Shown one piece after another: positions 23,441 to 36,503 of a stretch of DNA of 40,647 bases. The translations under genes and the position numbers were made by a program. Under the pieces are notes generated by a model. It did no database searches and was not told the DNA's origin. It was given only the letters and a program-made list of their open reading frames with translations. Numbering within the stretch: the stretch's first letter is position 1; each line of letters opens with the position of its first letter. Origin of the DNA: a virus; the UHGV virus genome UHGV-0183130. One strand, 5' to 3'.

Positions 23441-23685
23441 ATTCATTAGCGGCCTATTCAAAAACTACCATTACGATGGGTCTGCCCATGGTTATGGCAA
23501 CGCAGAAAGGTAATAGAATAAGAGTTAATCCCCTGACCTTACCAAACCAGCGGCCCACCCTAATTAGCTCGATTACTTTGAATACAACTTTTGTGTTTAG
23601 GCAACCTCAAAAATCATACAAACATATCACCCACGCTGATAAAAAAACAATCCAAAATAAAATCTCATTTACATCACTGGAGTAA
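23437..23685 (+). CDS. Hypothetical small protein (AT-rich cargo)
   Basis: 82 aa ORF overlapping the previous stop (ATGA); no recognisable family. Confidence 0.25.
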   Translation: MNSLAAYSKTTITMGLPMVMATQKGNRIRVNPLTLPNQRPTLISSITLNTTFVFRQPQKSYKHITHADKKTIQNKISFTSLE

Positions 23686-23690
23686 CAACC

Positions 23691-23936
23691 ATGCCTAACT
23701 GTGAACTTTTAACCGAAACCGGCGTTGATAACTTTGCCATTGTTATCAAATTTCTATCAGAAAACAACCTTATAGATGAAGCAGTTAATTATTTAAAAAA
23801 CAATGGCCATACAAATATTAGAGTCAGCATCGAAGCTGTTGAAGACATACAGAAATTCTTATCCGAAAAATATCCATCATCCTCATCAAGCAAAGCTGAT
23901 GCCATAATTAATTGCAGTCATAGCCATTGCAGTTAA
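23691..23936 (+). CDS. Hypothetical small protein (AT-rich cargo)
   Basis: 81 aa ORF with GGAG SD; acidic, Ser-rich C-terminus; no recognisable family. Confidence 0.3.
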   Translation: MPNCELLTETGVDNFAIVIKFLSENNLIDEAVNYLKNNGHTNIRVSIEAVEDIQKFLSEKYPSSSSSKADAIINCSHSHCS

Positions 23937-23996
23937 TTACTAACGCTATGCCAACTAATATTGAATAACTAATCAGACAGCGAAATAGGTGACAAG

Positions 23997-24461
23997 TCAT
24001 TTTAAATTCTGCGCACTGACATATTCTTGTAATCCGGCAAGTTGCTTGGTGACAGTTTCTATTCGCTCTCTGAGAGTGAAATAATCCCGTTGAGCGGTGT
24101 CAGTAAGTCTGGGGCCGGTTGCATCATCCATGCTGGCGGTGTCGGTGGTTTGACGCACTTTATTGCAGGCGGCTGCAACGCGCAGCTGCTTGCGCCCAGA
24201 CTCAACATCGCCACGTAGACCGCTAATGGTGTTTTTCGCATCAGCTAACTCCTTCGTATATTTGGCATCCAGTGCAGCGACATCGCGCTGGCGGGTTTGC
24301 ATGTCGGTGATAGTAACGTTAGCTAGGCTGAGCTTTTCAGTTGCTTTGTTGCGTTGGTCTTTGTAGGTGATCGCGTTGTCGCGGTAGTGGTTAACGGCCC
24401 AGCCTAGAGATAAGATTATGCAGATGATCACAGTAATGATGATGTTTGTTAGTCGACTCAC
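23997..24461 (-). CDS. Rz: Spanin inner-membrane subunit Rz
   Basis: 154 aa; [16 protein letters not shown]...[20 protein letters not shown] parallels lambda Rz; GTG start overlapping endolysin stop. Confidence 0.85.
24059..24241 (-). CDS. Rz1: Spanin outer-membrane lipoprotein Rz1, embedded in Rz in +1 frame
   Basis: 60 aa with signal peptide and lipobox (LGASSC), proline-rich [17 protein letters not shown] and C-terminal TPLNGIIS, as in lambda Rz1. Confidence 0.75.
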
Positions 24462-25006
24462 CGGTCAATCCCCCAGCACGTCAGCGCACTTTCTTGATCG
24501 CGCCGCTCGACCTGCCCATAGCACCCATTTTTCTGGCCTTTGGTCAGACGACAGTCGCGGCCGCCGTCTTTAATCCACCAGCGGATCGCTTCACAGGCGC
24601 CTTTACGGTCACCAGCGTTAATGCGCTTATAGAACGTAGAAGGGAAACATTTTCCGGGGCCGATGTTGTAAGGACAAAATGACGCAATACCCGCTTTCTG
24701 TGGTTCGGTCAGTGGTACTTTGATATTTCGCTCAACCCACGCCAGCGCCTTGTCGCGTTCTATGGCGTTCACCTTGGCGCATTTCTCAGCAGACAGCTTC
24801 ATGCCCTGAACTACTGGCTTACCATCAACCATCGTGGCGCCACGGCAAATAGTCCAGATTCCGCCGCCGTCGCGATATGCTGTCAGGCTGTTACCCTCTT
24901 TCTCATCCAGAAACTGATCGAGAATCACGGGCGCGGAAGCCCCCGCAAGAATCAAACCAACGACCGCTGCGCTCAGTTTATTCTTCAGCTTTGGTGGCAT
25001 AGCCAT
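24458..25006 (-). CDS. Endolysin, T4-lysozyme family (GH24) with N-terminal signal-anchor-release-like segment
   Basis: Gly/Ala-rich weakly hydrophobic N-terminus [19 protein letters not shown] then E-x8-D-x5-T catalytic spacing ([16 protein letters not shown]); resembles phage 21-type SAR endolysins. Confidence 0.8.
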
Positions 25007-25256
25007 TGCGCCGATCCTCCCGTTCTTTCCAGCGGAAATACCAGTTCACTGCACAAGTGATAACTGTGCATGCGATACCGACAATAATTGCCCAGTCGCT
25101 CAGGCTTAACCCTGCAATTCTGTCGGCCAGCATCCAGGACACCTCTTTTGCTGTTTTAGCTGTTTCGGCATATGCCTTCGCTGATACACCGCAGCCGGCA
25201 AGCGTGGTTCCTGATCCATATGAAAGTCTGCTGTAAATGGTGCTCATTCTGGTCAT
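24978..25256 (-). CDS. Holin, pinholin-like, possible dual start (MTRM)
   Basis: 92 aa with two hydrophobic segments, the first Gly/Ser/Ala-rich; C-terminus [15 protein letters not shown] resembles the phage 21 pinholin tail; SD GGAGG; overlaps endolysin start. Confidence 0.7.
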   Translation of the reverse strand: MTRMSTIYSRLSYGSGTTLAGCGVSAKAYAETAKTAKEVSWMLADRIAGLSLSDWAIIVGIACTVITCAVNWYFRWKEREDRRNGYATKAEE

Positions 25257-25360
25257 AGCCCTACCTCCGATTATTCGGATGGCGCTGTGTGATGAAAGGG
25301 TCAGGCTTCACGGGCTGGATTTATCAACAATATGTATCGTGGATGATTCCCGTGAGCCTG

Positions 25361-25390
25361 AAATAAAAAAGCCCCGGCGAATGCCAGGGC
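25361..25390 (-). terminator. Rho-independent terminator upstream of the lysis cassette (tR'-like)
   Basis: On minus strand GCCCUGGC-AUUC-GCCGGGGC (8-bp stem with one G-U) followed by UUUUUUAUUU. Confidence 0.6.
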
Positions 25391-25915
25391 TGGTAAATCT
25401 CAAATTTAAATATCAAAGGGATTTCGTTTTAGCTCCAGAGCTTCCTGTTGTCGCCAATGCAACCAGGTTGGTTTTAATGACTTAGCCTTCTCTGATGATG
25501 AGCAAGTTTTTTGGTATAGGTATTCAGTCATACTTATACCAACCTTGGTATCTGGAAATACCCCATGGTATGTGCCGTCAGGATCCTGATGATTGGATAC
25601 GAATAACAATTGCACAAAAGTATTCATACCTTCATTAGACAAATAACAAGAATGAATAAAACGTAGGGTATGAAAATGGTGACTATCTAAATTAACCATG
25701 ATGCTCTCCATGTGGAGTTTATAGCACTCATGTGCACATCACCCGGCGGGTGAAGGGCAAATTTTAACCTTTCCCCTCAGTTTCATCCAACAACAATAAT
25801 AAAACCCGCTCATCGGCGGGTTTATAAAATTTTGGCAACATATCAAATATGCTTAAAATATGGCTTATTTTGTTGCATTTTGCAAGCGCGTTTGAAGGAG
25901 ATAGTGAAATTTACT

Positions 25916-26605
25916 TCACATTTCTGCCACTTTGAGGGCTTCTTCTTCCTCATAGTATTCAAGAGCCATTGCCAACGCAGATTCATCAAGCTGGGTAAAA
26001 GCGGCCTTTAACCCAGCCCAGTGCCATGAATAGACACGCAACCATGTCGAACGGTCAACGCTAACCATGCGGGCCAACGCTGCACCAGCATAGTCTTTAT
26101 AGGTTTCATTATTTCTGTTTGCGGCAATTTCCTGCCCTGCCAGCCATACCAGACCTATCAGTTTCTTTACTACACGCTCCTGAAGCGAGTTTTCACCCAG
26201 GCATTTCTGATAAGTTTTCCAGACGTATTCACACATCATCACCTGGTGCTTATAGCTAAGGTCAAAACCGTAGCAGTACCGCAACCAGGCCTGCTGGTAT
26301 CCACTAAGCGCGGACACTGCCCTACGCCACGGCGCGGACTCAAATTCCGCATCTTTTATCGGCGGCATTGGCCTGCGGCGGCTGCGTGTTTCCAGCACAT
26401 ACAGTGGCGCGGAAAGCGAGTTAACAAAGCGTGGCCCCTTCTCTCCTTCGAGTTCGACGAGATGAATTCCACGGCGCGGGGTGGCATTTTTGTCTGCTGG
26501 TGGGTGTTCACTGAAAGCCTCAAGCTGCCCTTTTGTTCCCCCAGAGAGGTCAGGTAGCGCGCGGCGCAATTCTATTCTTACAAAATTCAGGTCTTGTTGA
26601 TTCAT
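25916..26605 (-). CDS. Putative late-gene antiterminator (Q-like, QuuQ-type), assigned mainly by position
   Basis: About 229 aa from ATG 26605; sits between the DUF968-like gene and the lysis cassette, matching the ydfU - quuQ - holin order recalled from E. coli Qin prophage; not similar to lambda Q itself. Confidence 0.45.
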   Translation of the reverse strand: MNQQDLNFVRIELRRALPDLSGGTKGQLEAFSEHPPADKNATPRRGIHLVELEGEKGPRFVNSLSAPLYVLETRSRRRPMPPIKDAEFESAPWRRAVSALSGYQQAWLRYCYGFDLSYKHQVMMCEYVWKTYQKCLGENSLQERVVKKLIGLVWLAGQEIAANRNNETYKDYAGAALARMVSVDRSTWLRVYSWHWAGLKAAFTQLDESALAMALEYYEEEEALKVAEM

Positions 26606-26626
26606 GCTTCTTTGCGCTCCATACAC

Positions 26627-27622
26627 TTAAGCTTTCGCAATTACGCCGATCGCCAGCGCCCGATCCATAAAACGCAGTAGCAGCTCAAGCTGCGTACCAT
26701 GCTTCTGCTCGAATGCTGGTACATCGGCGTGTAACTCGTCGTGGCACTCTCTGCACAGAGGGATCACGAAGAGGTCATGGGCTTTTGTTGCTGTACCACC
26801 CATACCGTGCCCTACGATATGGTGCGGATCATCTGCTGGCCGTCGGCAACACTCACAGGGTTGTGTTTTAACCCAGCGGGTGTACGTCTCATTTATCCAG
26901 CGGCGTCGCTTTGGCCTGAGCATGAAAGATTCTGGAGACTCCGGATCAACAGAGAGCGTGAGGATCTTCTTCGCCTTCTCCTGCACGAGGCTGGTTGCAG
27001 ACGCTGAAGGCACAATGTCGCTTTCCCTCATGACAGAGCGGATGTTCTCATCCGGGAGGCGCAGCCCTTTGTGCGCAACGCTTTCCGGAATAACATCAGC
27101 CAGGTCGTTTCTGACCATCCACCAGCACAGTTCCGGAAGCGTCAGGATATGCGACTCGGGAAAACCAGAATCACGCCGAATGACTTCCAGAATCCAGGAT
27201 ACCAGGTTTCCTGCCGCTATACCTGCAAGCTGTTCGGTATGCTGCCCCGACAAAGTGTGATCGCAATGCCAGCACAGGCGAATGCTTCCTGGTGGGTGCC
27301 GCATTGTTGTGAAGTTCTTGTCGTGCCACGATGAATGTGGCCACTGGCATTCAAACCGAGAACTCAGCCACTGCTCAAGGGAAGGAAGCCCACCGGCACG
27401 CTGAATAACCCGCTCATTCCCGAAGACCTGCCGCATTACCGGATCATCAGCCAGCGGCTGAATGGCTGCCGGAACAGCCCCGGTACTGAATGACGCCATT
27501 TCTTCTGGTTCAGGTTCGAGCAGAACGCGACCACGCATGAAGAGGTGCATCAGTTCCGCGCCGGGACGAAACAACACAATCCCCATACGATGGGCTACTT
27601 CAGGAGTTAACAAAGCCCTCAC
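26627..27622 (-). CDS. DUF968-family phage protein (YdfU-like) with C-terminal Cys/His cluster
   Basis: 331 aa; C-terminus CECCRRPADDPHHIVGHGMGGTATKAHDLFVIPLCRECHDELH looks like an HNH/zinc-finger type motif; GTG start overlapping Rha stop (GTGA). Confidence 0.5.
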   Translation of the reverse strand: MRALLTPEVAHRMGIVLFRPGAELMHLFMRGRVLLEPEPEEMASFSTGAVPAAIQPLADDPVMRQVFGNERVIQRAGGLPSLEQWLSSRFECQWPHSSWHDKNFTTMRHPPGSIRLCWHCDHTLSGQHTEQLAGIAAGNLVSWILEVIRRDSGFPESHILTLPELCWWMVRNDLADVIPESVAHKGLRLPDENIRSVMRESDIVPSASATSLVQEKAKKILTLSVDPESPESFMLRPKRRRWINETYTRWVKTQPCECCRRPADDPHHIVGHGMGGTATKAHDLFVIPLCRECHDELHADVPAFEQKHGTQLELLLRFMDRALAIGVIAKA

Positions 27623-35871: not shown

Positions 35872-35963
35872 ATTGAAGCGTAATTCCATTAATTATCGCC
35901 AACCGGCGAGGGATTCGTGCAACCAAAATCTGCGCGGTGCAGCGCGCCAATATGGAGAAAACC

Positions 35964-36503
35964 ATGAGCTACATTCAGACATTATCCGGCAAACATTTTA
36001 ATTACCTCGATATCCAACAGGACGATATCGTGATCGAAGATATCGCTACCGCGTTGTCTCATATCTGCCGCTTTGCTGGGCATCTTCCTGAGTTTTACAG
36101 CGTCGGCCAGCATAGCGTTTTAACCAGCCATCTCGTTCCGCAGGAGTTTGCATTAGAAGCACTGCTTCATGATGCCGCCGAAGCATACCTGCAGGATATC
36201 CCCTCACCGCTTAAGCGCCTGTTACCGGATTACCAGGTGATCGAAGCTCGCGTAGACGCTGCTATTCGCCAGAAATTTGGCCTTCCTATGGAGCAACACC
36301 CAACCGTGAAATATGCCGATCTGGTGATGCTCGCCAGCGAACGCCGCGATTTTGAAATTGACGAAGGTTCCGTGTGGCCATGCCTCAATGGCGTTGTCCC
36401 GACGGACCTATTCATCATCAACCCAGTTCGTCCAGGCCAGTCATACGGCATGTTCATAAATCGCTTTAATGAGTTGATGGAGCAGCGCCAATGTGCCGCA
36501 TGA
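35964..36503 (+). CDS. HD-domain phosphohydrolase (YfdR-like 5'-deoxynucleotidase)
   Basis: Start at ATG 35964 (SD GGAG): MSYIQTLSGKHFNYLD...ICRFAGH...LLHDAAEAY fits HD-domain metal-binding His/Asp pattern and remembered YfdR. Confidence 0.6.
   Translation: MSYIQTLSGKHFNYLDIQQDDIVIEDIATALSHICRFAGHLPEFYSVGQHSVLTSHLVPQEFALEALLHDAAEAYLQDIPSPLKRLLPDYQVIEARVDAAIRQKFGLPMEQHPTVKYADLVMLASERRDFEIDEGSVWPCLNGVVPTDLFIINPVRPGQSYGMFINRFNELMEQRQCAA

Follow-up and report, generated by a model that had tools for sequence, protein, structure and literature searches.

Organization of the interval between Q and the holin gene

The DNA analyzed here, referred to below as the window, is the whole stretch of 40,647 nucleotides of the virus genome UHGV-0183130, and the region of interest within it is the gap at 25257-25915 (659 bp) between the open reading frames of a Q antiterminator (25916-26626) and a holin (24978-25256). 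All of the genes in this part of the window lie on the minus strand and are read from right to left. The Q product matched Pfam family PF06323 (E = 1.2e-36) and PHROG 304, 'anti-termination protein Q-like' (E = 6.7e-72); in its relatives, gene callers chose a 229-aa start. The initial annotation had described the gap as unusually long. However, the corresponding Q-S gap of phage lambda is 676 bp (from the end of Q at 44509 to the start of S at 45186), and the length of the gap is therefore ordinary. The individual features listed in that annotation were all found in the sequence, and all of them read on the minus strand. By comparison with related genomes, the gap could be divided into a late control part (25798-25915), an insert (25392-25797) and a holin leader (25257-25369). 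The features of the locus, in the order in which they are read, are as follows.

26627-27622, minus strand, DUF968 gene
25916-26626, minus strand, Q antiterminator gene of the 82 type (PF06323, PHROG 304)
25857-25885, minus strand, candidate late promoter pR' (blocks conserved in 12 sequences with an 82-type Q)
25837-25845, minus strand, putative -10-like pause-inducing element TGATATGTT, in a conserved block
25794-25823, minus strand, tR', intrinsic terminator of the late leader (terminator scan, inverted repeat and fold)
25392-25797, minus strand, AT-rich inserted module (moron) between two terminators (GC content and breakpoints with E. coli)
25761-25790, minus strand, candidate moron promoter (TAnAAT invariant in 12 unique upstream sequences)
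25724-25755, minus strand, 5'-UTR hairpins HP1 (25755-25737) and HP2 (25735-25724) (RNAalifold consensus)
25406-25699, minus strand, ORF97, 97 aa (homologue family; codons 25699-25409, stop codon TAA at 25408-25406)
25511-25542, no strand assigned, 13-nt inverted repeat of GGTAT units inside ORF97, judged incidental
25361-25391, minus strand, terminator t2 after ORF97 (terminator scan; 9-bp stem and U-tract)
about 25257-25369, minus strand, structured holin leader (fold)
24978-25256, minus strand, holin, class II or phage-21-like (Pfam PF16080 and PF04971; PHROG 20, 'holin'), whose N-terminus MTRM is a possible dual start
24458-25006, minus strand, endolysin of the lysozyme family
23997-24461, minus strand, Rz-like gene

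A probable late control region of the phage-82 type

We aligned the region following Q in 12 sequences that carry an 82-type Q (the window, 434, Flotzy, Eeyore, phiNP, pAEv1818, yong2 and five prophages), and found that the conserved blocks of this alignment were TTGCAA, a 17-nt spacer, nATATT, TTTGATATGTTGCC and the terminator. In the window, the first three of these blocks make up the candidate promoter pR', with TTGCAA at the -35 position (25885-25880), the 17-nt spacer AATGCAACAAAATAAGC (25879-25863) and CATATT at the -10 position (25862-25857). A consensus promoter scan did not report pR', because each of its hexamers matches the consensus at only four of six positions. The block TTTGATATGTTGCC (25847-25834), which contains the -10-like TGATATGTT, was among the best conserved of the whole alignment. 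In the PR' promoter of phage 82, the Q-binding element lies between the -35 and -10 elements, and a -10-like pause element is located in the early transcribed region, with the native pause at +25 (PMC4914094). In the window, the spacer AATGCAACAAAATAAGC is the candidate Q-binding element. We infer that transcription from pR' starts near 25850, about 7 nt past CATATT; from such a start, TGATATGTT would be located at about +6 to +14, which fits a pause near +25, and the stem of tR' would begin at about +28, just past the expected pause. The leader RNA running from pR' to tR' would then be approximately 55 nt long when terminated.

The tR' hairpin (25823-25802) starts 93 nt past the Q stop codon and consists of eight pairs and a 6-nt loop, followed by the U-rich TATTATTGTT, and the terminator scan called it an intrinsic terminator. 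The initial annotation had correctly noted a hairpin at these positions, roughly 100 nt after the Q stop, but had missed its role as the late terminator. The terminator was conserved in most of the aligned relatives with an 82-type Q, and in the record of phage 434, Q is annotated as 'Q82-like' and a terminator is annotated at the equivalent place. With a PF06323-family antiterminator gene directly upstream and an intrinsic terminator shortly past the promoter, 25798-25915 is, as judged from its sequence, a late control region of the phage-82 type, in which promoter activity, pausing and Q binding are predicted. It resembles the late regions of phages 82 and 434 in its PF06323-family Q, in a candidate promoter with a conserved spacer directly after Q, in the -10-like element of the predicted early transcribed region, and in the terminator located within about 50 nt; the likeness to phage 82 was established through 434 and other relatives, with the start, the pause and Q binding being predictions in the window. 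The proposal in the initial annotation that this gap is where pR', a Q-utilization site and a moron would be found thus agrees with the conserved 82-type late blocks and with the inserted module described below. That annotation had also recommended promoter and terminator prediction, which called both terminators of the gap, but left pR' and the candidate moron promoter unreported.

We also searched for structured RNAs. ARAGORN found no tRNA in the window, and Rfam 15 gave no match at the gathering score. A relaxed Rfam search returned sub-threshold matches that were driven by the terminators, the best of which was Trp_leader over the pR'-tR' segment (23.8 bits, as compared to a gathering score of 41). 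These tRNA and Infernal-type searches had been suggested by the initial annotation, and its remark that it saw no tRNA or toxin-like gene held up, as ORF97 also lacked a match to toxin or defence families in the Pfam and PADLOC searches.

At the other end of the gap, the holin leader is predicted to fold strongly (-38.4 kcal/mol, z = -4.8), into a long bulged stem-loop (about 25361-25301) and a small hairpin over part of the holin ribosome binding site. E. coli prophages and the phages mEp237 and HK225 share this sequence at 87-94% identity. Reading the sequence of one locus that carries an ORF97 homologue (L016) by eye, we observed that the long stem of the holin leader was kept with an unrelated loop.

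The inserted module and the ORF97 protein family

The middle of the gap differs from its surroundings in base composition, with a GC content of 0.35-0.40 versus 0.51-0.59 in the flanks; likewise, the GC content of the window-type ORF was 0.36-0.37, versus 0.51-0.52 for Q. Of 5,426 complete E. coli genomes, 90 matched the gap, and did so at its two ends only. The segment 25798-25915 together with Q was 95.8% identical to E. coli (for example, Nissle 1917), and the segment 25260-25391 together with the holin gene was 87% identical to E. coli (for example, strain P27_L1_05.20). The middle (25392-25797) had no match in these 5,426 genomes or in 50,697 phage records, including by sensitive blastn. 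The breakpoints of the local BLAST alignments, at 25798 (Nissle) and 25391 (P27_L1_05.20), coincide with the outer edges of the two terminators. Between the equivalent terminators, other genomes carry different cargo. It encodes a protein of 68 aa in Nissle, one of 171 aa in P27_L1_05.20 and one of 240 aa in pAEv1818; phage Flotzy has a small ORF together with a DNA methyltransferase gene, phiNP and yong2 are arranged similarly, and phage 434 carries genes for membrane proteins. The two terminators are the edges of a slot in which related phages exchange cargo.

The second of these terminators, t2, follows ORF97 and has a stem at 25391-25370 with nine pairs (seven of them G-C) and a 4-nt loop, followed by TTTTTTATTT; its predicted fold is -18.3 kcal/mol (z = -4.9), in agreement with the strong intrinsic terminator that had been noted at 25361-25390. 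Morons, as defined by Hendrix and Juhala, are said to consist of a promoter, a gene and a terminator placed between backbone genes, with deviant base composition. The module in the window is absent from homologous relatives, deviates in base composition and has its own terminator. Among the 12 closest loci, it contained only 3 variable sites in 406 bp, and Q contained approximately 75, mostly at third codon positions; as the module is nearly invariant, selection within that lineage is not readable from it. These same 12 loci carry two different lysis cassettes. The small number of module variants, the two lysis cassettes and the breakpoints at the terminators suggest a recent spread of the module through recombination in its conserved flanking sequences.

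The gene carried by the module, ORF97, is preceded by a ribosome binding site GGAG (25709-25706), 6 nt ahead of an ATG at 25699 that is most likely its start codon, and encodes a soluble protein of 11.4 kDa with a pI of 6.6. The initial annotation had listed a 101-aa ORF at 25406-25711 and called it doubtful. The ORF is present, but the doubt was not justified, as it is a conserved gene that occupies the same slot in other genomes, with the 97-aa start being the likely one. We rejected the N-terminally extended forms (101 aa here, and 107 aa in some database entries), because stop codons close the extension in the window and in four homologous loci (L033-L036) and because the extension overlaps the conserved hairpins of the untranslated region; the extension is also not conserved.

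A protein identical to that of ORF97 is listed as hypothetical in public databases, from Citrobacter freundii and other Enterobacteriaceae, and a word-indexed search found near-identical copies only. However, an exhaustive HMMER scan, which overturned the reading of ORF97 as an orphan, found full-length relatives at 52%, 39% and 29% identity, and a profile search extended the family to approximately 23 homologue clusters (26-58% identical), all of them unnamed. The family is confined to enterobacterial prophages, in Leclercia, Citrobacter, Kluyvera, Enterobacter, Cronobacter and Atlantibacter, and a scan of species-representative genomes added one further locus only. There was no significant match to ORF97 in Pfam, PHROGs, NCBIfam or PADLOC, no tblastn match in the 50,697 phage records, and a single chance-level match (E = 1.3) among PDB sequences. 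A match to a 1915-aa protein (P0011) was rejected, because 25 residues had aligned with an HTH-containing unit that is repeated in that protein, and the repetition had inflated the match. An alignment of 25 sequences showed conserved blocks at YHGLFPDTGVSIAMTEYSY and KPxWLHWRQQEALGLKRNPFD, the latter containing the conserved C-terminal motif WLHWRQQEALxLKRNPFD. Differences were most common at third codon positions in most of the homologue pairs compared, and synonymous and non-synonymous codon changes were about equal in number in the closer pairs. With the ORF97 sequence alone as input, AlphaFold2 gave a pLDDT of 47.5, which rose to 86.2 (pTM 0.73) when the family alignment was supplied; the latter model contains a long beta-hairpin and further strands, followed by short helices, so that the predicted fold is small and beta-barrel-like.

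Across the loci that were examined, the distance from Q to the gene is 170-330 bp, and the holin gene follows it. L019 and L020 depart from this pattern, having a different context with no Q gene called upstream, as does L029, in which neither of the two Q queries gave a match. Most loci (the window group, Kluyvera and others) have an 82-type Q ahead of the gene, and in L014, L024 and L032-L037, Q is of the lambda type (PF03589), which is unrelated. The holin cassettes downstream are of at least four kinds, and in L016-L018, a tRNA-Gly(UCC) gene and several hundred further bases are located between the gene and the holin. A near-identical t2-like terminator followed the family members examined. 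On the strength of these comparisons, ORF97 is a real, conserved gene that encodes an undescribed protein family. Its role is most likely that of a prophage accessory function, namely lysogenic conversion or interference with a process of the host or of competing phages.

Proposed expression of the module and alternative explanations

Upstream of ORF97, we identified a candidate moron promoter with a -35-like TTGGAT (25790-25785), an 18-nt spacer and the -10 hexamer TAAAAT (25766-25761). TAnAAT was invariant in 12 of 12 unique sequences upstream of family members, including that of L019, which is the most distant and lies in a non-Q context; it was preceded by GGAAAGG, and in most of the 12 sequences, TTGnnT was located 17-18 nt upstream. 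The consensus scan did not call this promoter, because its -35 element is weak. Phages in which tR' is followed by different cargo did not show the motif, except that P27_L1_05.20 had a faintly similar sequence. An extended -10 sequence particular to the window (TGCTATAAA, 25726-25718) was considered and dropped as a promoter, because it was not conserved in homologues.

Two hairpins, HP1 and HP2, begin approximately 6 nt past the -10 box. In the alignment of this region, 97.4% of the cells were paired, both bases had changed in three of the pairs, and the covariation score (11 distinct sequences) exceeded that of 500 of 500 shuffles and of all slid controls. Several of the pairs are G-U, and the pairing is therefore specific to the sense RNA. 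In L019, the box is kept and is accompanied by a different hairpin of 12 bp. HP1 and HP2 probably stabilize the mRNA. With its own putative promoter, a 5' stem-loop, a gene and a terminator, the module has the structure of a classical moron.

We consider it likely that the gap serves to control the late genes of a lambdoid prophage with an 82-type Q, and that a self-contained moron has been inserted into it. This model builds on the anatomy of the gap, its conservation, the coding status of ORF97 and the breakpoints. In it, pR' (TTGCAA-17-CATATT) would fire and RNA polymerase would pause near +25 at the -10-like TGATATGTT; polymerase lacking Q would stop at tR' (25823-25802) and release the ~55-nt leader RNA. 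Once made, Q would bind the conserved spacer of pR' and load onto the paused polymerase, which would then transcribe past tR', across ORF97 and past t2 until it reaches the holin, endolysin and Rz genes. The 406-bp module, in turn, would use its own sigma70-type promoter (TTGGAT-18-TAAAAT) to make a monocistronic mRNA of approximately 390 nt ending at t2. This terminator would be required because the moron promoter would otherwise turn on the lethal lysis genes in the lysogen, and the strong terminator kept after family members is what is expected of a promoter that needs to be insulated from those genes. During lytic growth, ORF97 would also be transcribed by the Q-modified polymerase moving past tR'.

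Other explanations of the module are less probable. ORF97 could lack a promoter of its own and simply be the first gene of the Q-dependent late transcript, with TAnAAT and the hairpins acting at the RNA level (in processing, translational control or pausing). The nearly constant position of the gene directly downstream of pR'-tR' would be consistent with this arrangement, as would the weak -35-like hexamer and the failure of the scan to call a promoter, and the sense-specific G-U pairs mark the hairpins as RNA elements, which suits either explanation. However, the invariant bases (T-A-n-A-A-T) match a -10 hexamer position for position, the hairpins start where a transcript from this box would begin, L019 and L020 keep the box and a 12-bp hairpin with no Q called upstream, and the family members examined have a strong terminator of their own, all of which make a promoterless ORF97 unlikely. 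That ORF97 is instead a chance open frame in an AT-rich non-coding spacer, with the region being regulatory or junk only, has almost no likelihood of being correct. The near-identical copies returned by the initial search, the lack of a family match in Pfam, PHROGs, NCBIfam and PADLOC and the poor single-sequence structure model would all have been expected of such a frame, but the HMMER and profile searches returned homologues that align over the full length, at identities as low as 26-39%, and share conserved blocks. Furthermore, the frame was open in all homologues while its in-frame upstream extension was not conserved, third codon positions were the most variable in most pairs, the alignment-based model reached a pLDDT of 86, and a good GGAG ribosome binding site lies 6 nt ahead of the ATG.

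The initial annotation had also drawn attention to a hairpin of GGTAT units (25513-25540) with further copies nearby, and this feature is indeed present: the arms (25511-25523 and 25530-25542) are 13 nt long and 92% complementary, and GGTAT occurs eight times in 25513-25671, with six of the copies packed into 59 bp. The cluster and the 13-bp repeat (25511-25571) might form a functional element overlapping the coding sequence, such as an array of protein binding sites spaced by about 10 bp, a hairpin that acts as an attenuator or is recognized by RNase III, or a segment of an antisense RNA. In favor of such an element, the six clustered copies fall in several reading-frame phases, the hairpin folds at -12.0 kcal/mol in the sense direction (z = -3.6) and at -14.4 kcal/mol in the antisense direction (z = -4.2), where the mismatch becomes a G-U pair, and a similar 5-mer cluster arose in only 2 of 3000 simulations of the 406-bp insert alone. 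However, when the full 40.6-kb window was simulated with a Markov-1 model, at least six copies of some 5-mer occurred within 60 bp in 25 of 200 simulations (12.5%). The comparison with related prophages that the initial annotation had recommended also found the gene of the 101-aa ORF to be conserved (with the 97-aa start), but not the GGTAT repeats: the equivalent 45-nt segment contained zero or one GGTAT in 11 homologues and lacked the hairpin (folds of -3.4 to -8.5 kcal/mol), and whole homologue ORFs contained one or two copies as compared to eight here. Additionally, the scan found no plus-strand promoter or terminator framing the cluster. We therefore rejected GGTAT as a binding array, and regard any functional element at this site as highly unlikely. 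As the cluster lies inside the coding sequence, in its best-conserved block (YHGVFPDTKVGISMTEYLYQ), and is not conserved in homologues, it and the hairpin are probably incidental to the lineage of the window. The 5-mer scan also returned a cluster of ATATC near 36009, which was set aside as three GATATC sites that apparently derive from Asp-Ile codons.

Relationship to known late regions and morons

The proposed arrangement of the gap is that of the Q-pR'-6S RNA-tR'-S region of phage lambda, where a constitutive short leader is made up to tR' and Q-modified polymerase reads through it, and the size of the gap is similar. The lambda leader is 194 nt long with a pause at +16/17, as compared to a predicted ~55 nt and about +25 here, and the Q of lambda (PF03589) is unrelated to the Q of the window. 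Unlike the gap described here, that of lambda holds no autonomous gene with its own terminator.

A second point of comparison for the leader is StxS, an Hfq-binding small RNA (74 nt when processed) that derives from the pR'-tR' leader of a Stx phage (PMC7547250). Like StxS, the transcript from pR' to tR' that we predict in lysogens is short and combines an AU-rich stretch with a terminator hairpin and a U-tail, but there is no sequence similarity between them, and the predicted length is ~55 nt rather than 74 nt. By analogy with this precedent (PMC7547250), the leader could have a function of its own. A bolder proposal combines two separate elements. In the first, the ORF97 family would be a new functional class, whose gene is the first behind the late terminator whatever the Q gene or lysis cassette, and which would have two modes of expression (from its own promoter, with a hairpin-stabilized mRNA, in lysogens, and by Q read-through upon induction) and would act on late transcription, on lysis timing, or in defence or anti-defence. 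In the second, the ~55-nt leader would be an StxS-like small RNA. We regard this proposal as possible but rather doubtful.

Like other lambdoid morons, the module is an AT-rich insert that lies between backbone modules and is missing in close relatives; the cargo of its slot is interchangeable, and it has its own terminator and a candidate promoter of its own. It differs from those morons in that its cargo belongs to an undescribed family, in its two conserved 5'-terminal hairpins, and in recurring in the same slot behind two unrelated Q families. Other morons of this Q-holin slot are stx (Stx phages), nmpC (DLP12) and cspB/cspF (Qin).

The architecture of the gap is thus ordinary, consisting of a standard 82-type late switch and a moron in the well-known Q-holin slot. 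For annotation, what had been an 'intergenic' stretch now contains a mapped candidate pR', a candidate Q-binding element, a putative pause element and tR', together with one validated gene (ORF97) and two terminators that bound a cargo-exchange slot. What is new is modest: an undescribed family of 97 residues that is conserved in position and is accompanied by a promoter-like box and 5' hairpins. The family has a confidently predicted fold with no clear relative and is absent from the curated family libraries searched. As the Shiga toxin is among the genes found at this position, ORF97 is a reasonable, if modest, candidate for a function in lysogenic conversion or phage interference.

Possible plus-strand signals at pR'

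A promoter-like sequence lies on the plus strand opposite the leader RNA of the late promoter pR', with a CII-type sequence beside it:

25832-25859, plus strand: promoter-like site TTGGCA-16-TAAAAT, 10/12 matches
25870-25883, plus strand: TTGT-N6-TTGC box of the CII-binding type, adjoining the promoter-like site

The promoter-like site is antisense to the pR' leader and is directed into Q, and the phage 434 record has a CII site and the -35 element of paQ annotated at the equivalent position. Because the -10 element reads TCAAAT in most relatives (TAAAAT in the window), the promoter-like site may be a chance match.

Elsewhere, a 5-mer scan of the window flagged a cluster at 36009-36045 (plus strand), consisting of three GATATC sites. 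These apparently derive from Asp-Ile codons in the plus-strand ORF 35937-36503, and we rejected the cluster as trivial.

The holin leader and the lysis cassette

25257-25369, minus strand: holin leader, predicted to fold into a long bulged stem plus a hairpin
24458-25006, minus strand: endolysin with a hydrophobic, SAR-like N-terminus
23997-24461, minus strand: Rz-like gene containing an embedded ORF in another frame
24059-24241, minus strand: this Rz1-like embedded ORF, encoding a lipoprotein-like signal (...LSLGASSC...)

Secondary structure in the holin leader is strong (z = -4.8), and in its predicted fold the hairpin partly covers the ribosome-binding site of the holin. This element is kept in the E. 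coli phages mEp237 and HK225, and by our reading L016, a locus carrying a homologue of the moron gene ORF97, has the same stem with another loop. The holin itself (24978-25256, minus strand) starts with MTRM, possibly a dual-start motif for holin and antiholin.

Judged from sequence, the endolysin N-terminus looks like a signal-anchor-release (SAR) domain and the nested ORF looks like Rz1, and the lysis genes would form a pinholin/SAR-endolysin type cassette. Directly downstream lies a second AT-rich stretch (~23500-24000, GC 0.33-0.39) with small plus-strand ORFs, such as 23691-23936 (81 aa), and could represent a further slot for cargo.

ORF97 homologues and a possible recent spread of the moron

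In relatives, 400-700 bp of GC-rich non-coding sequence separate the ORF97 homologue from the holin (5295-5702 in L014/L015). This stretch has common motifs in L014-L018, such as CACCGGGAGGCACCCGGCA, and no counterpart in the window. Three of these loci carry a tRNA-Gly(UCC) between homologue and holin:

L016, 5735-5809
L017, 5762-5836
L018, 5735-5809

L019 (3913-5315) and L020 hold the family's most divergent protein, P0012 (104 aa), and no Q gene was called ahead of it there. Its gene follows a 118-aa ORF and an ORF weakly resembling 'Rem', with DinI and DUF4224 genes nearby; the TAGAAT box is retained upstream, together with a 12-bp hairpin.

Across L001-L011, which are among the loci closest to the window, the 406 bp of the moron (25392-25797) contain 3 variable sites, whereas the adjacent Q (25916-26626) has ~75, mainly at third codon positions, suggesting that the moron module has spread recently via recombination.
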